A stretch of 64,000 nt of DNA from Leucoraja ocellata (lineage: Eukaryota). A program made the position numbers and the translations under genes. Of the stretch, positions 1 to 49,337 are shown piece by piece. Below the pieces are notes generated by a model. That model did no database searches. It saw only the letters and a program-made list of their open reading frames with translations, and had not been told where the DNA came from. The first letter of the stretch is position 1. Each line of letters begins with the position of its first letter. The stretch spans positions 9,424,001 through 9,488,000 of the forward strand of contig JAWMAR010000008.1 of assembly GCA_036785375.1 (NCBI GenBank). The letters run 5' to 3'.

Positions 1-1665
1 AGTTACAGCAACACATCTGCAGAGTTATGCATTAGTCTGAAAAATCCATTTACTTTGCAATATGAAACCAAATTCACATTCACGAACATTGCTGTATACA
101 GGAAATTACATATCACAGTGAACCTGATAATTGTCATTTTACTATCTTAGTTTAATAATATTACATTGAGAAAATATATTTTAGAAATAATGAATTACTG
201 TGTTCGACCTGTGCTGTGGGTATGTAGACAAACTACTTCATCCCCCCCCACTTTTCATCCTGGAATCAATTTATAAGCATCTCATTCTAAAGAATTCAGA
301 ACTCCAAAAGGGATAGAATGGAAATGGAATTGGAGAGGACATAAACACATTGTTCAGAAGGCCTGATAGAAGAGAAATTAACGTATTGGAGTCTCATATC
401 TAATTATATAATAAATCACAAAGTTGCCAGGGCATCAAGAGTTAATTAGCTTGATTCTTTAATTGCCGCGGTTTTAATTGGCAATCTGTGGCACTCACTG
501 TGGAACCATCATATTCTGTGAGAAAGCAGCAGGGGATTACAGGCGGTGCAGTGTGGGCTCATTACCTAACACTTTCCTTCACGTTGTCCAAGATCACGTA
601 ATTTATTTTAAAAAAAAAACACAATAAGCGCAATTAATTAAACTGGGCTTTTTTTTTGTTGTTGTTGCAATCTTCCCAGAGAGTGTATGCTGAAAAATGC
701 CTGCCAGTTCAACTCATGGCTGGATGGTGCAATCGTCAACTAATGCAAAGCTGCTGCTATAGATTGTACGTGGGATATTACAGCCTCAGCCTACTACTGA
801 GAGCATAAAGGGAGAAAAATTATCACATTAAACCTAAGGTAAAAGATCCTAATAAAAACCAAGAAGACTGTAAACTTAGAATCACCATCGGCAGGAGTTC
901 ACTGAACAACTAACTCATTAGTTACCTCCAATTCATGTGATCAAAGAAACCGCTTAATTGAGCATATTTTTAAGAACACAACTACAATATCCTTTCTTCT
1001 TATCACGAGTATCCTTCCTCAATGCGAGAGGGTATCACAGTCTGGACTGTAATCGGATAAGGATGTCGTGAGCTGTGTTATAGGTAAATAGCAGTCCGCT
1101 AAATACCATGAGATGCCAGAAGGCGTCTAATGCCTCAAATAAAAACATTTTCTCATTTATAAATCCCACCTCGGAGGGGGTAGCTGTGGTGCTGTTGCGT
1201 TGCAGGTAACAACCCCGACATATTTTAAAAAGTTCAAGCTAACGATGCTAAATAATTACAAAAAAAAATGATAGCAGATTAGTGCTTGAGCGTTGCCACC
1301 TGGAGCCACCTGGCAGATTGCTTATGGGTTATGGAGAGCATTGGTAAGATTGGGGTTATTTCACCAACTATTTCACATTGTGGAAAATGCTGGAACTACT
1401 TAGCAGGACAGGCCGCATCTATCATGAAGAGAAACATATTCAACGTTTCATCCGGAGTATTTCCGGCATTTTCTATTTTTGCTTTCGATTTCCAGTATTT
1501 GTAGTCTGGTTTTTCATTTCACGTACGGAAATGATGTCGCAAATTAGGAAAACGGCCAAGGAAATACCTTCTCTCAAATTATTTGAATACATTCCCAGTA
1601 CTATGTTTAAGGTGATTCATTTCTTGGAAACTTTTACGCGGCGCCAATACATGTAGTGCACTCAC

Positions 1666-1910
1666 CCCTGTTCCTCCATCATCTCCTGAAGCTCCATGCA
1701 TTTGAGTTCGACCCTTCTTTTCCGTTCGTGGTCTAGTATTTCCCGGTTGGCCTTTTTTACCACGAGTGGTTCCATTTGCTTGGGGTCCCCTTCGGTGGTG
1801 TATTCCGCGCCACTCTCCTTCCTTTGCGGGGCTGCAGAGAGCATTTGCTGAGCGCAGCCATTTGTACAGCTCTCCCGAGCGGAGGGCAAACCGTCGCCGT
1901 TGTTGTGCAT
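1666..1910 (-). CDS. SRRM3: First coding exon of serine/arginine repetitive matrix protein 3 (cwf21 domain); gene continues to lower coordinates beyond the window
   Basis: The ORF ends ...KKANREILDHERKRRVELKCMELQEMMEEQG, matching the SRRM3 cwf21 signature (SRRM2 has PDILDHERKRRVELRCLELEEMMEEQG). Phase-2 donor CAG GG|GTGAG at 1666/1665. Polypyrimidine plus CAG acceptor(s) at 1938-1959, upstream of the ATG. Confidence 0.9.
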
Positions 1911-1937
1911 GTTGGTGATCGAATTACCAATTCAGTT

Positions 1938-1968
1938 CTGCAAGGGAACTGCAAGGGAAAACACAGAA
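1938..1968 (-). promoter_or_regulatory. Tandemly duplicated 3' splice site (TTCCCTTGCAG x2) of the SRRM3 ATG exon
   Basis: Plus strand has ctgcaagggaa at 1938-1948 and again at 1949-1959; the minus strand reads ...gtgttTTCCCTTGCAG|TTCCCTTGCAG|aactg. Confidence 0.75.
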
Positions 1969-2471
1969 CTTCGGTTCAGCCCACATGCACATAAGTGGCA
2001 GATTAATGGAAGTAGAACTAGAGTACACAGAGGCCCGGTGGATACACTATTTCAAGAGCGTGGAGCCGATTTTATCTTTACTTAAAACATTCCCCCATTT
2101 AAGTGCTATTTCGAACGTCTTGAATTCAGTTGCATCTTCGCCATGTTACCAATTGCGATGCCACCCATAGTTGAAATTTAGTCAGCAACATCCGGTGGAA
2201 ACGTTTTTTACGGCAGGTCCCAGGTTTAAAGATCTGTTACTCCACGGGACGCATAGTGTCTGCAGTTCAGCGATTACACTATTAACACACATTACCCATT
2301 TCAGTGCTGAATTCAGTTACACATTATTCGAAAAAGTATTACCGTCTAAATCCCCAACTCTACGAGCCAAATACCCGGGTGTGCCAAATACAAGTGCATT
2401 CTTTACAGCCACATTAACAAATAATAACAAACATGTGTTAATTTGCGTGCATTAGTATACACCGCCCCAAC

Positions 2472-2943
2472 TTTAAGCAGCCCGGTGCTATAAAATGATC
2501 CGGGCAAATGCCCACTAATCGCATTACCATCCGCGCAAATCCAGCTCGGTTGCCGCTATCCACGATGGTGAGAGCAGGACCCTACCTATTGTGTTGTCTA
2601 CAAAGCCGGAAGCAGGATCGCTCGCCGCGGTGTTATTGTCCAAGGTGCTGAACAGTGAAACCGTCGCCTCGTTGCTGACAGCAGGAGCGAAGCGTGTTGT
2701 GTCGCTAACCGCGGTGCTGAAAGCAGGGGCGCTGCCGCGCTGCTGCTACCCACAGTGCCAAGGCAGCAGCTCGACGCTTATGCTGCTAGCCGCGGTGCTG
2801 AAAATAGGAGTTCCTGTTGGTGTGTTGCTATCCGCGGTGCTGATAAGACTTTAACTACATGCTGCAAGTTTCCCAATAAACTGTAATATCCTGGCCTCAC
2901 CATCCGTGGTGTAGTGGTGCGAGGCGCTGTGCAGGGTGCTGAG
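2472..2943 (-). promoter_or_regulatory. Tandem array of REST/NRSF RE1 (NRSE) motifs in a CpG-rich region
   Basis: Matches to the RE1 reverse consensus GGCGCTGTCCGTGGTGCTGAA at 2632-2652 (15/21), 2701-2721 (17/21), 2782-2802 (16/21), 2824-2844 (16/21), 2923-2943 (17/21) and 2552-2572 (14/21), plus weaker in-phase copies. Confidence 0.85.
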
Positions 2944-3879
2944 ACTGTACTTATATGTGCGAAGCGTTAGCAGCAGTCGACTCGTTGCTCGATATGATCA
3001 ACGTCGAACGCCCCGGCGCTTCTGATGCTTCATTGTTCCCTTCAGAAATCGGTCGCGTCGATTGCCTGTGATAATCAGACGATACAGGCATAACCAAATG
3101 CACTCCTGAAACGCCTCCCGTGTGCCTGTCCGCGGGACGATCAAATATCTATGGCTGCCTCACTGGAGAAAAGCTTACAATGTGGCAGTACAAAAGGGGG
3201 AGTTGCTTAGCCAGCTGTCCCGTGTAACACAATGCGCCGACACTGGCAGCGCCTTGCATATATAAATACACCTCTCTACTCGTCAGCTCACCGAGAGGAA
3301 ATAAGACCCAAATGCTCCCCACAGTATAACGCTAGTTTCAGCCCTGCACTATAATTAGAAACGTGACATTAGCTCCATTCCCCAATCGCTCATCTTGAAT
3401 GATAAAAAAGACAATGACATTTGCAGTTCCCATATGGATCTAAGATTAATTCCGTGCAAAAGTTGGCGGAACGACAATTGATAGCCTATATTTAGATTTA
3501 AGATTAAATACACCACAGCTTGTATTAAATCTCCAATGTACACGGGAATGAAATCGCTTGAGAATAATTTGCCGCCTCAAAAATATGGTCGTGGTTTATG
3601 AAAATAAAAAAAGTATTTTTGACGACTTAAGTCACAAGTGAAAGTCTGTAAATTGATTAGATATTGTTGTCACTACTTTATCTATTCACAAGAACAGAGA
3701 CAACACATTAAAATATAAGTATTTCTGATTCTCAATTCTCCAGCATTTCAGGCGGGAATTAATCAACTGGCTTGCTGCCTTTATAATCACCATAACTATG
3801 ATTCTTATTATCTACAGAAAGTCTTCTTCTAACTTTCTGCCATCCTTCCGGACTGATCTGATATTGTCCATTTCACCGA

Positions 3880-4490
3880 GGGAGTGAAAACTCTACGAGG
3901 ATGGCCGAGTAAACAGAGTTGATTAAATTAACGAGCACCGACAGTCTGCATTTAAGACCAGTCGCTTTCGAATGCAATTTATCTGATTGGTTTGGGTGGA
4001 ATAAGCATTTGAACCCAACCAGTTTCATAATGCTGCTCGAGTCACACACGAGTGCATTAATAACCCGCTCGCTGAAAGCAAGACGCCAAAACAATTGAGC
4101 TCTGCTAACGTCATGGGGAGTGTTGGAGTGGGGGGAGAGAGAGATCTGATATTTTAATCTGAAGGGCTGCAACGACAGCATGACTTCAGGCGTCCATTTC
4201 TTTTTAACCCTTCGTGCTACAGGTTCCTTAAAATCGGATCCTGCTGAAGTGCGGACCTTCAACTTGGAACTTAATTCCGGCCAGAGTGAAAACATAACGC
4301 TTACTTGTACGGGAACAGGCCAATCGAAAATCTTCATTCGCGAACCAGTTTGTTGTGCAGACACTGGACTGCGCTCGTCGCCACAGTTCTTAAACCGCCG
4401 ACACGAGGCATTGAAGGTGCAGCGTTACTTGCAACAGCTCCTTTTACACTTGGCTGCACTCGGTTTTCAACGATGCATTTGCACACCGTT
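3880..4490. promoter_or_regulatory. Second CpG-enriched segment; possible non-coding exon or alternative promoter of SRRM3
   Basis: CpG is elevated relative to the flanks; minus-strand donor-like CAA|GTAAGC at 4305/4304. Confidence 0.3.
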
Positions 4491-6805
4491 TCAGTTTTTT
4501 AAAAATCACTTAACTGTGAATTATTGATAGGAAAGATGGAGGGTGTGACACCTTGCTTCAGAGGAAGGAGATCAAGTATGCACACCAATGGCTCTCATGC
4601 ATATTAGATGTGTCACATCATTAAAAGTTGAAATCGATAGACCTATAACTGAGAATTACATTGTGCTTATCTTCCCTCATAGAACAGGCTGAACTTGAAA
4701 AAAAACATTGATGCAATCCTTTTTCAATCCTCATTCTTTTTCTGTCGAGTTCAGTTGAGAGGTATTATCACCGTACCTCCATTTCTGGCGATGTTCTATT
4801 TCAGGATAACAGTGTAAAGTCCCACTCTTCCCTTTCTGTAACTAAAATGGTAAGCAGCCCACACCCACATATGTCGGTAATAATGCTTTAAAATAAAAAG
4901 CTCCATTGGGGTACTTAACTGCTCACAAATAGTCGAACCATGCAAGTCAATCCATTTTAAGCATGGTCGTGATTTATTTTAGGTATGTGTTGAGGAAACC
5001 AGTATCCATTGCCAGAGTACTTGGATGGAGGTTCAGTACAAGGCTTGTGCACCTTTTGATGGATGCTTTATGCCTATTGTCTTTGGAGCCATCCCCAATT
5101 ATTCACGCAGGAGTAGACATCAGATATCAGCCGAAAACACAGTAAAACATGATGCAATTCTCCCAGAACTGTACTTCATGGTAAATGATATCCTTGTAAT
5201 TACATCCATTCATGGTCTCACCTCTCCCCTATAAATCTACTCCAATAGAGTTTCAACTGGTCTAAAAATTATATTCCATTGTGCTATAGCTTTTGCAACA
5301 TGACTGGCAACCATGAGGTCCATTCTTCTGCAATTCAGTCAACATTCCCTCCATCTGCTTTACACTCTATCTCTGCCTACGTTTGAGGGGGAAGGGCGTG
5401 TTATTTCATCGATTGTCCCTACACCTACTTTCATCGAATTATATCTGTTCTAAAGCTCTCTAAGAATTATTTTACACAGTAGATAATGTATATTTGCCAT
5501 AAACAAATAATACAAACTGCAGAAAGGGGTAATTTTCTATTTCTCACCAATCCCAAACCAGATATGACAAGGGCTACATCAGGGTCTATGTTCACTTTAG
5601 GCTATCCGATAAGGATGGCAAACAATTGACGATCTCACTTAAAGGTCCAACATTTTCCATTAAATGGTGATGAATCTCTGTTACCCATCATGGCTCAAGA
5701 CGAGTCTGACAATTTAAACCTGAATTATTATCTGTATTGTACACTCATATCCACTGTTCATTAGGAAAGGCAACATATTTAGCCATAAAGTGGGGGAACT
5801 AATTGTCCAAAAGATGCAAACCCATTTAAAGTAAAAGAACAAGAAATTGAATCTTGGTAGAACATGTTTAGTTCTTTGTGCTAAAATTGTAAAGTGTCAA
5901 TTTCAAGACACATTAATCTCAACACAATAATTTATAACACCCAGAGGGCAAACATTTCACAGCTCAACTGTTTGAAAGCAAGGGATCAATCTATTTTTAG
6001 AACAATACACATGTTATCTTGGCCCTGGATGACTGGTTCTCAAGATTTTAAAACTCATGGTGTGTTTCAATATTATTCAAATTATGTTGAAACATAGCCA
6101 TGGCGTATAGTCCCAGTTTTGACATTGAAGAATAGCTTTACTAAAGCTGGTTGGTTGCAAAATGGTTGAAATCTAGTGGAGTTTGTGCTCTAACCAGTGG
6201 ACATGGATGTGCTTTTGTCATCTGTCTTAAGATATGATTAATATTAGGAAAGTGACAAATCTTTGGGAATGAACACTCATTGATAACTTTGCTATGTACA
6301 TATTGTACTGTTTGTACATACAATATGTACATATTGCACTGAAAGTTTCAATGGCTTGCAGACAATTTTATTTGTAATTGTTTTGACAAGCATAATACAA
6401 CGAGGAACCTGATGTTCTAACACTGTAGAATAATGTTGTTCTGGTGCTAAACTCCATGTCCATGATAGCTCAGAGAGCTTTAACAAACTATCTATTCCTT
6501 TGAGCATGAGTTCACAACACGAATCTGACAGTTTTGTTTACACTATCTCTACAGTGCAATTTTGTAGGTGTCAAATTACATTTTTGGCATGCTGATTCCA
6601 AAATCTGCATAAGTATTTCAGTGCAGGCTGTGACAAGTAAAATAGGACGAGGTAGACTTTAGACTGTTTATGCTTCACACAACCGGACTTTTTAATTCAA
6701 TAAAATATTTGGAAATTCAGAATTGGTAACTTTTGATTGGCATCAATAAAAACTAGATTAAAGCATTTGTAAGGTAGGCTATTATCCAGGCAAACGTAAT
6801 TAATT

Positions 6806-8110: not shown

Positions 8111-9740
8111 TATATGAATGAATGAATAAGTTTATTGGCCAAGTATGTACACATACAAGGAATTTGCCTTGGTGCTCCACTTGCAAGTAGCAACACAACA
8201 TACAGCAACAATTAAGAATGACATATAAAACATTAAACATTAATAATAAAACATTACAGTTTAAACATGTGAATGAAATAAAATACCAGAGCAAAATGAG
8301 GCTACAGACTTATGGTTATTGAGTAGAGCTACTACTCGTGGAAAAAAAGTTGTTTTTTTTGTCTGGCTGCAGCCAACAACCTTCTCAGCTGATCGGACGA
8401 TTCGCTGCAGCCTCCGGATGTCATGCTTAGTGGCTGAGTCAAACCAGACCATGATGGAGAAGGTGAGGACAGACTACGATGGCAGTATAGAATTGGACCA
8501 TCATTGCCTGTGGCAGATTGTGTTTCCTCATCTGCTGCAGGAAGTACATCCTCTGTTGAGCCTATTTGACCACGGAGTCGATGGTGGCCCCCCACTTAAG
8601 GTCCTTGGAGAGGATGCTTCCAAGGAACTTAAAATACACAATACACAATACAATTTATTGGTCACTTGAACCTCATAGAGGCTCAAATGAAATGTTGTTA
8701 CTGCAATCATACACACAAGAAAAAAAGACCCAAGACACAACACAATTTACACAGACATCCATCACAGCGCATCTCCTCCTCGCTGTGATGGAAGGCAAAA
8801 AAACTTATCTCTCCCCTGCATTCCCCATTCCCCTCCCGATGTCAGTCAAAGCCCCCGGTGGGCGATGTCAATTGTCCCGCGGCCATTAACGCCGCGCCGG
8901 GTGATGCAAGGCCCTGCTCCGGGTCTTGTTGTTGGAGCCCCCGGCGGGCGCTAGCAAAGTCCCGCAGCCATTGAAGCCGCGCCAGGCGGTGATGTAAGGC
9001 TCCGCTCCAGGTCATCCTCGACCCCGTGACTGGAGCGGGTGAAGTCGCCATTGCGGAAGCCCCGTAAAGCGGTCTCCCAGCAGGGACCCGCGGGCTCCCG
9101 GTGTCACTGTCCACCGGACCTGCGGTAAGCCTCCGAATTCCCGGGGATTCGGTAAAAGACTGCAAAGATGTGACTGTGGTGTTGTTGATGGTGAGTGGGG
9201 GGAGGGGAGGGGGAACTCTCCTAAAGTCTACATTCAATTCCACTGTTTTTGAGCATGGAGCTCCAGGTTGTTACGAAGGCACCAGGAAACCAGCTGTGTC
9301 ACTTCCTGTCTGGAGGCAGATTCCTCTCCATCCACGGGATCAGTCCAATCAGGGTTTTGTCATCCGCGAACTTGAGAAGCTTGACAGAGATGTCTGTGGA
9401 GGTGCAATCGTTGGTGTAGAAAGAGTAAAGGAGAGGAGAGAGTACACAGCCTTGCGGTGCTCCTATGCTGAGGGTCTGTGGGTCTGAGGTGTTTTCCCAG
9501 TCTCCCATGCTGCTTCCTGTCTGTCAGGAAGCTGGTTATCCACTGACAGAGGGGTTCAGGCACATTCAACTTGGAGAATTTGTAGTAGCTCTGGCACAAT
9601 GCTGTTGAATGAAGAGCGAAAATCAACAAACAAAATCCTTGCATAGGTCCCCTGGCAGTCTAGGTGCTGGAGGATGAAGTGCAGGCCTAGGTTGACTGCG
9701 TCATCCACTGATCTATTGGCCCAGTATGCAAACTGCAGAG
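8111..9740 (-). mobile_element. Rex1/Babar LINE, 5'-truncated and frameshifted, interrupted by an insertion at 8635-9152
   Basis: RT motifs in the ORF track: WITSFLTDRKQ, GAPQGCVLSPLLYSFYTNDC, KFADD; C-terminal RRLQRIVRSAEK; AATAAA plus (CATT)n tail near 8111-8135. Confidence 0.85.
8635..9152 (-). mobile_element. GC-rich 518-bp retroposed element nested in the Rex1/Babar LINE
   Basis: Flanked by TAAAA at 8630-8634 and 9153-9157; removing it restores the host frame (SLQSF|KFLG). AATAAA plus (TTGTGTA)-type tail on the minus strand; two ~86-bp internal tandem units. Confidence 0.7.
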
Positions 9741-12240: not shown

Positions 12241-14674
12241 AATTGCTTCATGCCTTGCAGTATAAACGATGACCCTGGATCCAGTGGCTATCTGGTTAAT
12301 TCTGCATTATGTTTCAGCACGGCAATGCATTATTTTGCAAAGTAAGAATGCCTGTTACATTTAAAACTTAGAGCTTCGTAAAACGTTAATAATGTTTCAC
12401 TATTTTAATGCTGCAATTAAATTAAATCAGATTAACTGATGGTAATTTTTTCCTCATTAAAAAATCATCTTTAGCTGGTTTCATGTTTTGATGGCAACAA
12501 ACATTTGGCTCGCTGTGAGAGAAGTTTGCACAATGGCAAAGTGTATTGCAAAATAAACAGTATTACAGTTAATCCCCCTTTAATGCAATATTGTGAAAAG
12601 ATTTGACAGCTGATGGAAGCTATTGCACTGATGCAAATAGTCATTCCAGGTCACTATCTTTATAATCATATATTGATTTAATTTACAATTTAGATTACCA
12701 TGAGGTGCTTGTTACTAGAATGCACCTTGATAATTGTGAACAAACTGACGGGGAATGGCTGAGTAAATCGTTTAGTTATTTATTGGTGTTTGCGGCAATT
12801 TTAACCCTGCAAGTGGATGGATTTGAGAGCAAACAGAGGATTAATCTCTCAAAATCCGCAGTTCATCAGAAAATTGCTGCCAAATTACAAACATTTTCAT
12901 TTAACCCAGACTGTGATCAGGAGATTGTGGCCTGCAATTCCAGTGTGTTCATTCTTCATCAATGATCTATTGATATTGATGAATATTTAGGTGCATGAGT
13001 TTCATGTTTCTTGATTCCCGCCAGTGAAAGCAAGACAAGAACAAGGTGTCTTTGGAATGACGATGATAATGTGGTATAACGTCGTCAGTGGCATATGTGG
13101 AGACTATTTGTATACCTTGGCTATGCAAGGAAAAAATTCCATTGGGCCTTGTCACATGTGACAATAAACTATTCCATTCCATTTAGTGCAACTTTGGCAA
13201 TTCAACTTGGACATTCAACAGTCCTATCCTCGTCATGCGAGTGATGGTTAGTACTTCATCCATCTCCCTCACTGAACCCATCAAAGTGGTTATATTTGGC
13301 TGAAGTATATCGCTCATTACTGATGAGCAGTATACTTCTGGACAATTAACAAGGAATATGTGAATGATTGGCAGGGGCTAATCCTTGCCAAAAGATGTGG
13401 AAGACTGCTTTGGGCATGGTTCCTACGACTGCACCATTTGAAATGATCTCTTACAAGGAGGATTTCTCCTAGATCATTCTTCAAACCTGACACAGCATTC
13501 CTGCTCTCTCTCACTTTTTTTGTCACACAGTTTGACACATTTCACGTCAGCTCACTTCAGCTTAGGAATAGGCATAGACCATTCAACCCCTGGAGCTTTT
13601 CTGCCATTCAGATCATACCGATTCTGTATTCTAACTCAATTACTCGGCCCATTTCTTAATTCCTTTGTACACGCAGTTAGCAAAATGTATCTCAGTTTAA
13701 AACATATATTGAATCGGAGATTTATCATTTTTAATATATAAATACTAAGAAATACAAAATCTCTTTAACTATCATCACAGAATCATTAGCTATTTACGGA
13801 AAGAAGCTCTTTTATATTCCCCTAACGTTCGTTTGTTTAAAAAGACGCTTCTCAACATTTGCCATTTCTAAAACATCCCGGTTCCAACGTTGACCTCGTG
13901 GCCCTGTGTTTTGAAGTCTCCAAGCAGAGAAAATAAAGGTTTTGCTACACATATCCAATGTTATCAAACCATATAGTTATCAAACACCACGATTAGGTAA
14001 CGCAACTCAAGAAAATGCACCCCAAGGCTCAACAGCCGATTAAGAATGGGTGATAGAATTTGCCAAATCTCTTTTTAATAGAAGGGCAATGAGGAACTCT
14101 GATGTCAGAATATATATTTACCATTAGATCGACCATCGCCTGCAGTGGTTATGGATAAATAACAAGGTTTGTAATTTGATCTTCTGCAAAGTTCAGTGAA
14201 AAGCACAAGGTAATGGCAGGTGTTCTACCATTTGCACGCTGAAAACTTAATTCTATAAACTCCATGAGTAATTAACATTTAAACATTTCTGCAGCTCATG
14301 CAACCTCAAACTACGAAATTATTGGAAAAAAACTCCAGCAAGTCTACAAAAAAAACTGAATGAATTGCACATTGAAATCTAGAAATCAAGAAAACAAGCC
14401 TTCAAAATTCCGTGGGAAGGTCTGCCTGTCCATGCCACTGTCGCTGTGGTTTCCATGTACTAGCATTCAGTGGACAACGCATTGTTTCAGCTGTTACTGC
14501 ACAGTATGTACTTATTAGTAATTGAACACTGCACATCTGCAGACTGAGTCCTTCACAAAATGATGTCAGGGTTCCAGTTCTCAAAGAGCATGTGATCATG
14601 AAAACATTCCACTGCTGATTAAGTGACTACAGGGGACATTCAACTGGGCAGGGTGATCCCAAAGTTTTATTTAG

Positions 14675-16258: not shown

Positions 16259-17910
16259 ACTATTTTTGCAGGAATGGACTGGAAACTGGTGAGAGGGCTG
16301 ATGTTGGCCACAATTGCCTGGAATGAATCAGAGGCAGGTTAAAGCCCACAGTGACATCAATTTATAGGGCCACATCTGAGCACTGCCCACAAACAGATTT
16401 CAATGTCAAAAGTGGATGGTGCAAAGCATTTTTCTAAAGTGTTTGGATGCTAATTCGTTTAGAATTTTGATTTAAAAAAATCATGGTATATATTGTCACC
16501 ACTTCACACTGTTGGCAAATTGAATATTATATGTGTCGCGTGGGCAGAGTAGAAGAGACTGAGGGGCCATTGGTGATATCATCTCTTACATTATGCTGAT
16601 ATGATTCTATGTAGACATTAGCCTCTTGAATAATTACTGGTCAGTTAGGAACTCTGTAGGAACTCTGCAGGAACTCACATGGGAACTAAACTCACATCTC
16701 TAACTGCAGGGGCCCCAAATTGACTTATGGAAATCCGACTTTACACAAATGATCCCATACATTAAACAACATTTTTCAAGCTAGTAATAATAATAATAAT
16801 TGGTATCCAGATATTCAGTATTGATTAGATTCAGTATATATTCTTTAGTTTAATTATCAGTAGTGTTAGAGTAAATACTCAATGAATTTTTTTTAAAAAA
16901 GCAAATGTTTGTGGAGTGATACGATATGGATTACTAGAGAAAAATGATTTTGGAAAGTTCTCGGGAACCCTTACAAAACCCCGGAACTGCGAGAATTCTT
17001 GGACAAGTCTTTCTACCCATCATACTAGAGACCCAGCAGGGATTTCTTCCACAGGAAACTTTTGGACTGATGTGTCTTGTCTGCTCTGAGAAAACACTAT
17101 GGCATTGGTCATCAAACTTACTCGCTCATATGCAATCCCCAGCAAACCAGCAAGTCACTGAAGATCCCCTTAAATACTGCAGATTGATGAGTTCTTGAGG
17201 ATTGATGATTTGGCAGGGCAAGAATCAAATCAACATAACTGGAAAAATAACAAACAGAAGACACTGTGAACACTCGCCAGGTCAGGTAGCACTTGTGGAA
17301 AGAGAAGCAGATTTGTTGGTTCGGGTTAAAGACCTTTCCTCAGGGGAAAAGCGAGAAGAAATGTGTGCTTTCAGTTGCAGAGAAGATGGAGGAGAGACGG
17401 ATGGGGCAAAGGGAATATCTCTGACCGATTGCCTATGTGTGACTCCAGGGCCACTGTTTTCCAAACAACTTGTAAGTGTCCCCAACAAGCTGCACAGTTC
17501 AAATCATACGTGGAGCTGGTGATGACAACTTCCCATGAATAACAATGTATAAATAATGAACATAAATCACTGCAATTTCTGATATTCTCAGTCAGTGCAA
17601 TGAGGTCATCTGTAGAAAGCTTCCATTCTGGATGGTTTGGAAAAGGGAAATATTTGGAATAAAATAAATATCTACACTATGTCTAAAATAGAAAGATGAA
17701 ACAAAAACCTACCGTTTGAAGTTTGATCTTTGTTTTATGAGGTTGAAGTGAGGGATTACGTAAAGAGCCCACCAGCCCGGATGCGCGTCAATCTTCAGAG
17801 CAACTGTTTGAAACCATAAACCAGTTGCAGGACTTAAACTATAGAAAGATTAACGACCCTAGACTAAGCGGATGATCTTTATGAGAATCAGGGTTGGGAG
17901 TGGAGGGCAC

Positions 17911-17947
17911 GTTTCATCTTTCTATTTTATATCAAAGTCGCGTGAGT
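17911..17947. repeat. DIRS internal complementary region (ICR)
   Basis: 17911-17928 is the exact reverse complement of 17685-17702 (18/18). 17925-17947 is the reverse complement of 21481-21503 (21/23). The two halves share TTTT. Confidence 0.9.
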
Positions 17948-18148
17948 GGCTAAGTGAAGCCTTCAAAGCTCTGTGGTTTCATGCAGTGAGCCAGTCTATA
18001 TGTGGACACACTGCGCCGATTAACCATACATGGTTGAAAGAAAAAACATACTTCATTGAAACATGATGTTAATTTGCATACATGTACATGCTTTAATAGA
18101 AGCAATCCCTTTACCTCAGGGATAAACAATTGTCTTAATCAACATAAC

Positions 18149-19005
18149 TTAATATTCTTTTAGCAAATAAACCAGGCCTGTTAATTGGTTTATTGTAAAA
18201 CTTCTGAAAAGTGCGCTCATCTGCCCATCCTGCTGTCGTAAGAATGTGATCCAGCGGAACCTCCATTTAATTTCCCGCAGATGTAGCTGCATCCCTGGTA
18301 AAGTGAGATTTAAAAATATCAGTATCCACTCCCACATCTGATAACATACATTTTATCCATCTAGAAATGGCTTACACCGTTACTCTTTTGTGTGGCTTTT
18401 TATAACTTATGAAGAAAGCTTATTCGTTACCTCGAAGGTTTTTTGGAACCTCGATGTATTTCTTTACACGAGTAACCACACACAATCTTCAATCTGGTGG
18501 ATACGCCAACAGCTCTAATTTGTATCCCAACGCACCTGACCAGCTCTGCTTTATCAATTCATCTATGGAAAAGACCACTTTTTTTGTCGGATACAACAGC
18601 GTTATCCAGTCAAAGTTTCTGCAAAGACTGAACTCTTTGTGCCGAGACAAAGAGTGATAAGCATTACCAATTTGTGAGTGAGCTGAACCAAAGATAAAGA
18701 TGCGGCTGGTGCCAAATTGCGAAGCAGCCTTAACACTACCTTAATATTCCATACATCATGATATCTGGGTCTTGGAGGGTTCCTGTTAAAACCACCTTTC
18801 ATGAATTTAGATACCAATGGGCGAGTGCCAACAATTTGATGTCCAAATCCGAGCACTTAATATGATGATAAGGCACTACGAGCATTGTTAATAGCACTGT
18901 AACTTAACTCTTTTTCAAAATATAAAGCTGTAAGAAACTCCAAAACATCGGCTATATCCGCCGTAAAGTAATTTAGATGTGCCTCCCCACTAAACTTCTC
19001 CCATT
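18149..19005 (-). pseudogene. DIRS tyrosine recombinase, disrupted
   Basis: Across frames: LSYSAINNARSALS, PLVSKFMKG..N..PPRPRY..WNIKVVL, LTHKLVML, QRVQSL, ISRWIK, SHFTR (HSTR-like), AGW...FQKFYNKPI. Contains stops and frameshifts. Confidence 0.88.
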
Positions 19006-20165
19006 GGAAACCATGGTTGAATAGGCCAATTAGGAGCTACTAAAATGCCTGATGCCTTGAATAATTTTCTGCAAGCATCTCCCAATAAGGCAGAATGGAG
19101 TGAAGACATAGAATAATATCCCCCCCCCCCCCCCCCCCCAAGTCTATAGAAAATGCATCGATTGCTTCTGCCCCTGGGTCTAGTTGCCAGGCTATACATC
19201 TTGGTAATTGATTAAGTCTGGAAGCAAACAAATCAACCTCTGGTGTTCCATAACAAGCTATTATCTTGTTGAATACTGCCTCATTCAGCACCCATTCAGT
19301 TTGTTCATTGAACTTCCGCGACTTAGCATCTGCTACCACATTGTATCTGCCCGGCAAATGAGCAGCTGATACAAAAATACTTCCATCGAGACACCAAGAC
19401 CAAATAGTTTTTGCCAGAGCATCACATGATAGTGATCTACAACCACCCATATGATTTACATATGCCACTGCTGTCGAGTTATCCAATTGTAGCCTTATAT
19501 GCACACCATGTTCCTTCCCACAATATGCTTTTAAGGCATGAAATGCTGCTAACATATCCAAATAATTTATGCCATATTTTTGCCCAAGAAGTAACTCTTC
19601 CTTGTTCCACCTACCACCACAACTAGAGATGGTGTTAGTTGCACCCCATCCTAGTCCACTAGCATCACTTTGCAGTGTTGCTGTGGGTTTATTATGTAGA
19701 AAGCTGCCCGAACAACCATGTATATTTGCAATCCCCCCCATTGTAGTTCAGCTTTTGACTGTCAACAACTTCATAGGTCTGTCAAAATGACCTTTTTCTT
19801 TTCCCTTGAGAAAATGTTAGAGATATATTCTTCTTTCTCATGGACCGACTGCTCAATCACTCATTTTTTATGCAATGCCTCTATCTCTGCTTGAATATCC
19901 AAAGTTTCCTTTTTGGATCGAATATACGCAGGCCTCAGCATGTCTTGTCGAGGAGGAAACTTGTCAGCCAAGAACTCAATTTTGTAACCCGTTATGCTAT
20001 GTAGTACAAACGGATCAGAAGTTATCCGTTGCCATTCATTTAAAAATAACCTTAATCAGTCACCGACACGAAATTCCTCCGCACACCCTATGTGACTGAT
20101 GGTTGCACATCCACCTACCTCAATGGTCGTAGGTGGTTTATCACTAGAGCCAGCAGACCCTAGAT
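18990..20165 (-). pseudogene. DIRS pol remnant: RT N-terminus, RNase H and methyltransferase-like domain; RT core missing
   Basis: RNase H motifs LQSDASGLGWGA, INYLDMLA, DNSTAVAYVNHMGGCRS, HLPGRYNVVADAKSR. MTase-like VDLFASRLN and PNWPIQPWFP. No YLDD motif. Confidence 0.88.
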
Positions 20166-21398
20166 TTTGTTCGGCCTTCTTCCTTTAGCTCTGACATCTT
20201 GACCTGTTGGGGACTGAGGCTGAACGTACGGTGTGCGCATCTTCCAAGGTGGACGAGATGGACCTAGGCCTAAAAAAGACCTCTGGCTGGGTCTAAATTG
20301 AGTAGGCCTGGTACTCCAACCAGCCTCAGAGAAATGATTCCTGCTGCTTGTCATATAGGGGTGATATTGCCGGAGTACTGGAGCCTTACCCTTATAGGGT
20401 GTTTTAAGCATATTCACAACAGCCTGGATGACTTGCTTGCAGAAATCTTTTCCGAAGAGATATGTTGCAGACTGCACATTACTGGGCCTGCATAAGTGTG
20501 CAAATTTAGGATTTATTTCAGGCCAAATGGCATCTTTACGAAAGCAATTTATCTCAAAATAAGCATTACATGACAGTGCCAACGTATCCTGCTGTACTTC
20601 CGAAAGCTGAGCCCCATCTACTGACCTAGCAAAGGCCGTGATACCTGCAGATAGTAGTCTCAGGATTCGTTGTAACTTTAGATCGTTTGACTTTACTCTG
20701 TCCTTGAGAGTATTCCAAATGATAGTATTGACTTTCGGGACATCCAAAGACTTGCAGTTTTCTGGGGTGGGATATTTTCCAACCATATCCAGCATAATCT
20801 CCTTATTCAACTGATGAGATAGTAAGAAGTCGATGCGCCTGGCCAGCCCTTCCTCTAGTGGCCGACTTGTCCCCGAGGGGATGGCTTCCTTATGATGAGC
20901 CTGCCGCATATCATCGATTAAATCATGAGATCCCCATTTCTTAGTGATATCCCCATAATCGGAGTCACCACTGTAAGACTCTCCGATACTCCCCTCATCA
21001 GAGTGGGAGACGTACTGCAACCCTGAGCTAAGTGCTGCTACAGGCATTTGGCTGGAGCCGCCTGTTAATGCCTCCTGAGCACGGAGCATATGTCGTTCCA
21101 TCAATTTTTCAACTTGCCACTCTAGTTTGGACAGCCGGTCTTTCGTAGATGTTGGGGCAGTGTCTTCCTGTCCATACTCGTTCCATTGGACATTTCTTTC
21201 TGATTTAGCTTTGGCCTTGCCCCGACTCGGGGTTGCCGAACTGCTCCCTCTTGGAGCTGAATGGGAGGTTGCTGTGTAGACCGCGGCTGCCAGCATCTCC
21301 GAAGTCGAAACGGGTGGCCGTCGGCTTTTTCCACTTCCGCGGTCCGCTGCCGCTGCTTTCTCAGCAGCCCGTTTCCCCTTTGCCCTAGGTTTATCCAT
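20160..21398 (-). CDS. DIRS ORF1 (gag-like), 412 aa, uninterrupted
   Basis: Long open ORF 5' of pol with DIRS ORF1-like segments (KYPTPENCKSLDVPKVNTIIW, DLKLQRIL, YLFGKDF). Confidence 0.8.
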   Translation of the reverse strand: MDKPRAKGKRAAEKAAAADRGSGKSRRPPVSTSEMLAAAVYTATSHSAPRGSSSATPSRGKAKAKSERNVQWNEYGQEDTAPTSTKDRLSKLEWQVEKLMERHMLRAQEALTGGSSQMPVAALSSGLQYVSHSDEGSIGESYSGDSDYGDITKKWGSHDLIDDMRQAHHKEAIPSGTSRPLEEGLARRIDFLLSHQLNKEIMLDMVGKYPTPENCKSLDVPKVNTIIWNTLKDRVKSNDLKLQRILRLLSAGITAFARSVDGAQLSEVQQDTLALSCNAYFEINCFRKDAIWPEINPKFAHLCRPSNVQSATYLFGKDFCKQVIQAVVNMLKTPYKGKAPVLRQYHPYMTSSRNHFSEAGWSTRPTQFRPSQRSFLGLGPSRPPWKMRTPYVQPQSPTGQDVRAKGRRPNKI

Positions 21399-21635
21399 CG
21401 CGCCAAACCTCGGCCAACGTCGGAATTAGTTGTACAATTGTACTCACCTGTTCGACTTTTAAACCTTACCACTTGGGGAAACTCACGTGACTTCGATATA
21501 AAACAGGAAATCAGTTGTTAAATTTTCCTTCAAATATAACCGGGGTTTTAGTTTCAAGTACTTATTTGCCACACTGATAATCTTTTTTTTTTTTTAAATT
21601 TTACAATTCAGTACTGGGTTTCCAATGCCATAATG

Positions 21636-21990
21636 GAAGGTGTAAATAGCGTATAAAATCACGAGAGGAATAGATTACAGTCACTTGCCCGGAGTGGGTG
21701 AAGCGAGGACCAGAGGACGTAAGTTTCAAGTGAAGGGGAAACGATTTAATAGGAATCTGAAGGGTAACTTTTTCACTCAAAGTGTGGTGGATGTATGAAA
21801 GCAGCTGCCAGAGGGGGTAGTTGAGGCAGGGATTATCCTAACATTTAAGAATCAGTTAGACAGGTACATAGATAGGACAGATTTGGAGGGATATAGACCA
21901 GGTGGGACTAGCGTAGCTGGGACATGTTGGCCGATGTGGGCAAGTTGGGCCGAAGGGCCTGTCTCCACACTGTATTACTCTGTGATTCTA
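21636..21990 (+). mobile_element. CR1/HER1 LINE 3' end
   Basis: Closely homologous to 15677-15981 in the opposite orientation (gtgaaggggaaacgatttaataggaatctga...gggccgaagggcctgtctccacactgtat). Confidence 0.85.
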
Positions 21991-31740: not shown

Positions 31741-33214
31741 CTACAGCCTGCTTCTTCAATCAGACTGGCACCTAAACAGTGTCATTAGTAAGGTTGTCAT
31801 CATTACTGTTACATCTGTGACTATCAGTGAGTTCTGTTGAACATCCATTAAAGTTTGGCATAATTACCTTGACTCAGTTCAGTCAGTGCCTGTTGACCTG
31901 ATATCTCGGAAAAGTCCCTCAAATTTATATGCCAGGTACTCTTTCAGTCATAAGGTCATTTATGATAGATGAAGAACATACATCAAGCCTCACCATTGAC
32001 AAGGAAAGGGTTAACATTTTAATACCAAGAAGTTTTGCTTTAGATCTGAGAAATGTTAGAAAATAAGCCTGTTTGAACTGGCAGTGAAGGGAGTGGGGTG
32101 GAGGGAACAAAGGGAATTTTGTGACACCACTGAGATTGAATGGCATAATTAGACTTGAATAGGAGAGGGTGCTGAAGCCTTGTTAAAAGCCACAAACCAA
32201 TTTTGAGGTGGTATCAACATAGGAAATGGGAAAAAAAGTCCTGCTGGAACTGGGACATATTAAAATTACTAAAAAATTGGAAAATAAACATGGCCCAGTC
32301 GTACAGGCAGCACATGGGGGAAAGAGCAAAACTGAGCTACATCAGAACTGGCAAAGCAAAAAACTGCTGATGCTTTTGGTCAAATTATCTGCTGCTGGCT
32401 CAGAATGCTATGCATTCAAGAACTGTACAGACTTTAACACAATCCAGTGCAATTTTGCGGGAGTGTTGCATTGTCTGAGGTGCTGTATTTTACACCTGAC
32501 GCTAAACCAAAGTTCTATCTGTCTACATACTCTGTTGAATACATTAGAACCAATGGTACTATTTGAAAATAATTCAACCAGGCTCCCCAATGCCTGAGCA
32601 AATATCCCTTCCTCAACTGTCAATACCAAAACTGATTATCTTGTGTTTCATTAATTTTCAGTTTGCAAAGCTTAAAATTAATGAAATAACTATTTTGCAT
32701 AAAATAACTGCTACATTTTGCCTGACAACAACAAAAGCACGAATCAAAACTTATTTTCTTAATAAATCTCCATCAGGCACCGTGAGAATGTAATAAGGCC
32801 GTCCTTATGATTTGAACATCACTGCATGTTAGCTATTTCTAATTGAAAGCATATTTTCTTCACCTAAATCTTAGCTTTTGCAGTAAGGGGTAATTAATGA
32901 ATTCACTGGGTTCAATTTTTGGAGCATTACAAAGATTTTGGATTGTATACCAAAACCACTGGGGTTCACAGGCTGTGTACCAGATATGTTATAATGATAG
33001 TAACTATCAAATGTATACAAGTTTCCTATTACTAAGATTAAAATGTCCCCACTACAGAGCAGGAGATATTTTCATTCATTTGGCTGAGGAACAAATGAAC
33101 TGCAATGCGGAATGTTTAAGTTACTCCATGAATAATTAAAGGGAATACGTGTCATGATTTCAGAGATGATGATGATTGTTATTGCTCTAAGCGACTTGTG
33201 CCATTAATTAACTA

Positions 33215-48575: not shown

Positions 48576-48863
48576 ATCATTATGCTATCTATATAACTAA
48601 AAGCCTCAACTATACCACTTCCTGTCTGCGTTGTTTAGTGATTTTAGAAAAAATGCTACCGTATATCACTATCATTTTTGGCCATCTTACTCACAGTCCT
48701 CCTCCACTAAGGCAGCCCCGAGAATGTTTCCGATCGATGAAAAATAAAAAAGTTATGAATGTTAAAAAAAATTCTTGAGATCAGCTGATTGGTCCTCTTG
48801 CCTGTCAATCACCATGATGAAGGTAATGCACCTTCTGGGAGGGCAGGAGCATAATGCCCAAAA

Positions 48864-49098
48864 GGTATGAAATTGCATTTGAATTTGGTGGCTTGCACTC
48901 TGCTACAAATGGTATGAAATTGCAGTTGAATTTGGTGGCCTCAACTCTGCTTGAAATGGTATGAAATTGCATTTGAATTTGGTGGTCTGCACTCTGCTTG
49001 AAATGGTATGAAATTGCATTTGAATTTGGTGGCCTGCACTCTACTTGAAATGGTATGAAATTGCATTTGAATTTGGTGGCCTGCACTCTGCTTGAAAT
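48864..49098 (+). repeat. 47-bp minisatellite x5
   Basis: Units start at 48864, 48911, 48958, 49005 and 49052 (ggtatgaaattgcatttgaatttggtggcctgcactctgcttgaaat). Confidence 0.95.
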
Positions 49099-49114
49099 AG
49101 TATTTCAAGGAATA

Positions 49115-49337
49115 GCCATGAGTGAATTGCCAGCCCACCAGCCATGAGTCAATCAACTGCCAGCCCACCAGCTGTGTCAATCAACTGCCAGCCCTCCAGC
49201 CGTGAGTCAACTGCCAACCTAACAGCCATGAGTCAGTCAACTGCCAGCCCACCAGCCCTGAGTGACTGAGCTGCCAGCCCACCAGGCCTGTGACTGAGCT
49301 GCCAGCCCACCAGGCCTGTGACTGAGCTGCCAGCCCA
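49115..49337 (+). repeat. ~26-30-bp minisatellite x8 (core tgccagcccacca)
   Basis: Repeated gccatgagt...actgccagcccacca and gtgactgagctgccagcccacca units. Confidence 0.9.

Follow-up and report, generated by a model that had tools for sequence, protein, structure and literature searches.

A degenerate tandem array of RE1-like sites upstream of the SRRM3 start codon in Leucoraja ocellata: a candidate multi-site REST silencer

Introduction

REST binds RE1 elements (also called NRSEs) and recruits co-repressors. In the human genome 27 pairs of RE1s lie within 100 bp, in groups of up to five, all of them head-to-tail and with unfixed spacing, and Johnson et al. (2006; PMC1557810) proposed that such groups originated by tandem duplication and permit recruitment when REST is low. 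These groups, the pairs at SNAP25, L1CAM and KCNN4 among them, mix strong and weak copies (PMC1557810). A second set of examples is provided by the tandem NRSEs of CELSR3 and PCDH-gamma (Tang et al. 2021; PMC8096226), where more than one NRSE in one orientation lies under one REST peak. The same study reports that zinc fingers 7-8 of REST contact the CAGCAC left half of the element and fingers 3-5 the right half, that CAGCAC is the main REST contact in EMSA, and that one REST is bound per site in tandem arrays. In fish, an engineered 2xNRSE, an artificial pair of perfect sites, conferred REST-dependent neuronal restriction in zebrafish (PMC3529185).

SRRM3 is both a target and an inactivator of REST in the reciprocal loop that Nakano et al. 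(2020; PMC7652395) described for REST and SRRM3/SRRM4 in neurons and hair cells of the mouse, a finding that supports, for mouse, the mutual inhibition that had been assumed when the locus studied here was first annotated. REST overexpression lowered Srrm3 by 68%, SRRM3 inactivates REST via exon 4 splicing, and in hair cells REST is removed mainly by splicing (PMC7652395). In human lines, SRRM3 is down-regulated by REST (PMC4459148). Human SRRM3 is found within hg19 chr7:75.16-76.05 Mb, between MDH2 and HSPB1 (PMC9036355), and REST peaks at chr7:75,831,661, 75,833,576 and 75,854,777 hold one MA0138.2 match each, scoring 6.6, 19.5 and 30.7, respectively (PMC9903721). Among the peaks listed, REST sites at the human gene seem to occur singly and scattered, not as an array. 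We place all three peaks in intron 1 of SRRM3 and take the peak table to be in hg19 coordinates.

No published RE1 array at SRRM3 was found in our literature search, which covered mainly openly available papers and did not extend to the list of tandem sites in PMC1557810. The portions of PMC7652395 that were available held no cis-element array, the available supplement of PMC8096226 gave no match, and nothing on such an array was found in the available parts of bioRxiv 10.1101/2022.04.02.486809, PMC11307501, PMC11283458 and PMC4092221. The available Xenopus NRSE tables of PMC4430910 have 0 mentions of srrm3, which says little because that screen demands a perfect match to the consensus.

In this study, we undertook multiple computational analyses of a 64,000-nucleotide stretch of the Leucoraja ocellata genome (assembly GCA_036785375.1, contig JAWMAR010000008.1, positions 9,424,001 to 9,488,000; hereafter the window), for which an original prediction had described a ~41-bp minisatellite of about 11 graded RE1 sites upstream of an SRRM3 coding exon. 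The array at this locus resembles the human tandem groups in having at least two RE1s within 100 bp, arranged head-to-tail, and in mixing strong and weak copies. It differs from them in its size (eight slots and a flanking site), in spacer homology that is still visible, in its occurrence in a cartilaginous fish and, as far as the pairs named above go, in its position at SRRM3. Because the array spacers are still homologous, the duplication that was only proposed for the human groups is demonstrated here. Like CELSR3 and PCDH-gamma it repeats the element in one orientation, but those genes hold two NRSEs, made up in CELSR3 of four half-sites with long gaps, whereas here the gaps are the canonical 2 bp and intact sites number five. 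The array fits a known class of head-to-tail RE1 groups and does not represent a new type of element.

Results

The SRRM3 coding exon and its surroundings

Three features define the setting of the array.

1666..1937, minus strand: first coding exon of SRRM3, with the ATG at 1910 and a GT donor beginning at 1665
1938..1970, minus strand: pyrimidine tract and duplicated 3' splice site (from the sequence; TRF reports 11 bp x 2 at 1938-1959)
751..4750, no strand assigned: block around exon and array in which CpG is undepleted (CpG observed/expected)

The minus-strand frame 1910-1666 encodes the N-terminus and the first half of the cwf21 domain (translation; Pfam cwf21 E 1.5e-9). Among 120 protein matches listed, the closest to the exon were SRRM3 sequences from Narcine (82%), from Mustelus (77%) and from Callorhinchus (62%), and the starting methionine of the frame is the same methionine as in the Narcine and Mustelus proteins, all of which bears out the earlier naming of the gene. 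These relatives point to an elasmobranch, perhaps a ray, in line with the cartilaginous fish named in the original prediction. The ATG is preceded by two AG acceptors 11 nt apart (1950-1949 and 1939-1938). They reflect an exact 11-bp duplication of the 3' splice site (1938-1959), which yields two possible acceptors in the 5' UTR. Since the ATG follows a pyrimidine tract and this pair of acceptors, its exon is probably internal, which would place the RE1 array, most likely, inside a 5'-UTR intron of SRRM3.

A search for the upstream exon between 1950 and 10000 found no minus-strand donor with fewer than two mismatches; two is the best score, shared by ten candidates and by the true donor at 1665. 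The first SRRM3 exon could lie in one of the CpG-rich patches at 13500-14250, 17500-19000 and 21000-21750. The array itself lies 0.64-1.03 kb upstream of the start codon in a CpG-rich block, CpG observed/expected being 0.66-1.03 across 751-4750 and 0.94 within the array, versus 0.38 for the whole window. On this composition, the block is probably unmethylated regulatory DNA.

RE1 matches in the array

Two standards were used for RE1. The canonical 21-mer was scored over 20 positions with a consensus in agreement with that given in PMC3529185, and the second standard was the 17-bp degenerate consensus published in PMC4430910. All features of the array read on the minus strand, as does SRRM3, and mismatches below are to the 17-bp consensus unless stated.

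2552..2865 (end approximate), minus strand: degenerate tandem repeat of eight slots, each unit being an RE1 21-mer and a ~20-bp spacer
2552..2572, minus strand: decayed RE1 slot, right half kept and left half broken, 3/17 mismatches
2590..2610, minus strand: repeat unit whose RE1 is lost, 6/17 mismatches, repeat membership z 3.4
2617..2637, minus strand: partial RE1 copy within the 2590 spacer, 42 bp before 2659 and overlapping the 2632 site, two mismatches
2632..2652, minus strand: predicted intact RE1, perfect left half, one mismatch (position 17)
2659..2679, minus strand: decayed RE1 slot, 2/17 mismatches at fixed positions 8 and 17; 9/20 versus the canonical 21-mer
2701..2721, minus strand: predicted intact RE1, perfect left half, two mismatches (positions 14 and 15)
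2742..2762, minus strand: decayed RE1 slot, 4/17 mismatches
2782..2802, minus strand: predicted intact RE1, perfect left half, one mismatch (position 15)
2824..2844, minus strand: predicted intact RE1, perfect left half, one mismatch (position 15, the common GGATAG variant)
2923..2943, minus strand: separate predicted intact RE1, 99 bp past the last unit, one mismatch (position 13)

The left-half 8-mer GGTGCTGA, which carries the CAGCAC core contacted by zinc fingers 7-8, is present exactly at 2644, 2713, 2794, 2836 and 2935, in agreement with the five intact copies first reported, and these belong to the slots at 2632, 2701, 2782, 2824 and 2923. The five sites differ from the canonical 21-mer by 3-5 mismatches in 20, ungapped, and slot 2552 by six; beyond these six, just two positions in the window, counting both strands, have six mismatches or fewer. 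Dinucleotide shuffling of 2472-2943 gave a mean of 0.01 sites at five mismatches or fewer, and 0 of 5000 shuffles reached the observed five. No perfect match to the 17-bp consensus exists in the 64-kb window, and all four of the one-mismatch matches and three of the nine two-mismatch matches in it fall in the array. The densest 400-bp cluster contains seven consensus matches, versus at most four for shuffled patterns (n=300). In all five intact sites, the mismatches to this consensus (one in four sites, two in the other) are confined to the right half. Slots 2659, 2742 and 2552 have a damaged left half. Orientation is uniform, with 14 of 14 slots of nine mismatches or fewer in 2552-2943 reading RE1 on the minus strand; the co-orientation originally noted was thus confirmed, as was the separate site at 2923.

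To what extent the imperfect right halves are known from bound sites can be judged from human REST ChIP-peak oligos (PMC9903721), among which, counting one linker and one strand in the oligos listed, the canonical right half occurs at least 40 times, GGATAG at least 13, GGACAA at least 7, GCACAG at least 3 and GGTTAG at least 3. On the same restricted count, four of the five right-half variants of the array sites occur in the human oligos, the variant with 0 occurrences among those listed being GGCTAG of site 2782. RE1 consensus sequences are known to miss some bound sites (PMC1557810). An approximate MA0138.2 count matrix gave 24.3 to 25.5 (summed by hand) for a site whose published FIMO score is 30.7, and its scores and p-values were discarded. 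In its uncalibrated state it ranked the five intact sites first, and a scan with it for non-canonical RE1s (7-9-bp gap) returned only gap-17 pairings in the array.

The original prediction had counted slots at 2472 and 2511 among its RE1 units. These have 10-13 mismatches to the canonical 21-mer, and their likeness to the other units was matched by 176 and 144, respectively, of 1000 shuffles, so both were rejected as RE1 units and as members of the repeat. The series of about 11 graded sites is consequently reduced to five intact ones (2632, 2701, 2782, 2824 and 2923), and the remainder consists of four decayed slots, two non-members and one partial copy, that at 2617, which had been missing from the earlier site list. 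Since 2472 and 2511 are non-members and 2552, 2590, 2659 and 2742 are decayed, the likely REST sites, as judged from motif matches, number about five, not eleven.

Tandem repeat structure

The eight slots start at 2552, 2590, 2632, 2659, 2701, 2742, 2782 and 2824, with spacings of 38, 42, 27, 42, 41, 40 and 42 bp, and each is related to the others beyond expectation from its own shuffles (z 3.4-9.1; 0/1000). The commonest lags between shared 5-mers in the array are 42, 123 and 81. At standard settings (minimum score 30), TRF does not include the array among its 74 rows. Permissive settings recover 2618-2847 with a period of 42, 5.5 copies, 58% matches and a score of 178 that 0 of 1000 shuffles reach, although other stretches of the window also score up to 160-240 under those settings.

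With the motifs removed, the spacers are themselves related, the sum-of-pairs score for the six full spacers being 170 versus 36.7 +/- 14.4 for shuffles (0/2000), and 7 of 36 spacer pairs have p below 0.01. Most of this signal comes from the shared first 7 nt and the remainder is modest (49/2000); the 2590 and 2701 spacers are identical at 17 of 21 positions. The spacer word GCAGGA, described earlier as following most units, holds up within the eight-slot core, but over the 11 slots originally named GCAGG is exact after four and loosely present after two more. The units also share features that are not part of the RE1 consensus, namely a T at position 15 in five of ten slots and a linker starting with G in eight of ten. 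Because the spacers are related and the units share non-consensus features, we conclude, as had been suggested, that the array descends from a ~42-bp unit through tandem duplication long ago. The term minisatellite fits in so far as the units are head-to-tail and tens of bases long in an old, degenerate repeat of period 42, but they are too diverged for standard TRF.

An alternative 42-bp register starting at 2617 showed no tail conservation (p 0.26), and the register first proposed fits the spacers better. Weak RE1-like copies are present at 2727-2747 and 2896-2916 (9/20 mismatches), 15 and 27 bp before the neighbouring slots. The copies at 2617, 2727 and 2896 suggest that the 42-bp unit may be a compound of a 27-bp monomer and a 15-bp partial copy.

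The rest of the window

The 120 listed proteins, including an MDH-fused model, matched only the SRRM3 exon of the window by tblastn, and the MDH-fused bird SRRM3 model revealed no MDH2 exon in 2000-64000, so that more than 60 kb upstream of the ATG exon appear to be free of genes. Pfam scans for further genes (41 of 193 listed frames, then 12 frames) detected no other gene. Many dispersed short repeats occupy 2000-64000. A broken LINE reverse-transcriptase remnant lies at 8260-9660 on the minus strand (RVT_1 at 9302-9523 with E 4.4e-5, a match below the curated cut-off), interrupted near 8700-9200 by a GC- and CpG-rich insert. A 421-codon open frame without a Pfam match (20160-21425, minus strand) has as look-alikes in the Atlas (0.92-0.94) invertebrate hypothetical proteins, one cluster being 21% LAP2alpha; we take it to be, probably, ORF1 of a DIRS-type retrotransposon. 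A lone RE1-like site at 32467-32487 on the minus strand (2/17 mismatches) has no copy elsewhere in the window, and its context is one that we regard as resembling an ancient LINE2/SINE tail. Two young minisatellites, one of 47 bp in 5.2 copies (92%) and one of 28-30 bp in about 8 copies, are found at 48860-49337, within which there is no RE1 match at two mismatches or fewer.

Discussion

Starting from the observed array anatomy, its duplication and the identity of the gene, and borrowing the steps of REST action from mammalian work, we propose, with a probability of roughly 0.68, that the array is a multi-site REST silencer that would hold SRRM3 off until REST is low, within the REST-SRRM3 loop. 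A ~42-bp unit of one RE1 and its spacer would have been tandemly duplicated long ago into a head-to-tail RE1/NRSE cluster, about half of whose copies then decayed while five sites were kept. Each intact site would bind one REST molecule, its CAGCAC left half contacted by fingers 7-8 and its right half by fingers 3-5, and REST would bring co-repressors to the CpG-rich DNA at the first coding exon, thereby keeping SRRM3 off in non-neural cells. Occupancy of several medium-strength sites would be additive and repression would last until REST is low; SRRM3 would then be made, splice the inactivating exon into REST mRNA and lock itself on. We infer that the five sites act additively on SRRM3 and that the loop would supply any bistability, with switch-like behavior, if any, arising from the loop and not from helically phased REST-REST contacts.

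A different explanation is that the RE1 was merely caught as a passenger in a decaying tandem expansion, so that one or two sites (2824, 2923 or 2701) work and copy number is irrelevant. Its proponents could point out that the motif is lost in four of the eight core slots, that no site is perfect, that weak motifs below a score of ~20.9 did not silence alone in an MPRA (PMC9903721), and that 80-90% of putative REST targets have a single motif (PMC4430910). We nonetheless consider it unlikely, as five left halves remain exact and the motifs of units 2701, 2782 and 2824 are alike at 18 of 21 positions while their spacers, even with gaps, fall to 8-10 of 21 (Fisher p 0.002-0.010), a contrast that is partly built in since these units were chosen for their motifs and their pairs are not independent. 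The earlier view that motifs were held while spacers diverged is upheld among these three units, as would be expected of selection on RE1. Across columns, conservation follows the RE1 consensus weakly (Spearman 0.41, p 0.06).

The original prediction went further than additive occupancy in envisaging a phased, cooperative array of ~11 graded sites, with a sharp threshold set on the DNA itself and a ~41-bp period that puts sites on one DNA face. Neighboring slots over 2617-2824 are indeed 40-42 bp apart, near four helical turns, and the sites do differ in quality. However, the distances between successive intact sites are 69, 81, 42 and 99 bp, and 2782 and 2824 are the only intact pair in phase. 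Assuming 10.4-10.6 bp per turn, helical phasing was found in none of 12 tests (Rayleigh R 0.11-0.35), with p 0.57-0.95 for the five intact sites and, when 8 or 11 slots are taken, 0.41-0.69, so that the one-face claim has to be abandoned. Two of the supposed members, 2472 and 2511, do not belong to the repeat, published work favors one REST per site (PMC8096226), and the unfixed spacing of human tandem RE1s was read by its authors as a lack of REST-REST interaction (PMC1557810). We therefore judge a phased array to be very unlikely.

Origin from an RE1-carrying transposable element, as for human LINE2 RE1s, or from a dispersed high-copy repeat might be suspected given that LINE2-borne RE1s are common in human (PMC1557810) and that the window is rich in dispersed repeats. 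Yet blastn of 2461-2960 and of 2000-3400 against the 64-kb window returned nothing beyond a 21-25-nt flank match, leaving no dispersed copy within the window, and CpG in the array is undepleted, unlike in old repeats; we regard an imported array as highly improbable. That the repeat works through RNA structure, encodes a short protein or serves another DNA-binding protein is barely credible, for although the array is GC-rich and overlapped by stop-free frames of 73-111 codons, its fold is unexceptional (z -1.13; 14 of 100 shuffles equally stable), the window has 0 Rfam matches, the longest frame over it (111 codons) has no Pfam match, and the conserved part is exactly the RE1.

A bolder version of the multi-site silencer is that in elasmobranchs the trip point of the bistable REST-SRRM3 switch is fixed by a conserved array of deliberately imperfect sites, in which site number would be a dial for how low REST has to drop before the microexon program begins. 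The kept sites combine a perfect left half with a weakened right half, and single, scattered sites seem to serve the human gene; even so, we regard the dial as quite unlikely. It could apply in hair cells, where in mouse REST is removed mainly by splicing, and, speculatively, in electroreceptors. Were the dial to exist, the array would also document directly how an RE1 cluster was assembled through duplication and then pruned by selection.

The array offers a compact, 0.4-kb, single-locus test of the old proposal that tandem RE1s come from duplication and retain REST when it is scarce. Intact and decayed sites here form a natural series, placed on the very gene closing the REST loop, and this series could separate additive occupancy from cooperativity. 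If the array is functional, direct REST control of SRRM3 would reach cartilaginous fish and thus the base of the jawed vertebrates.
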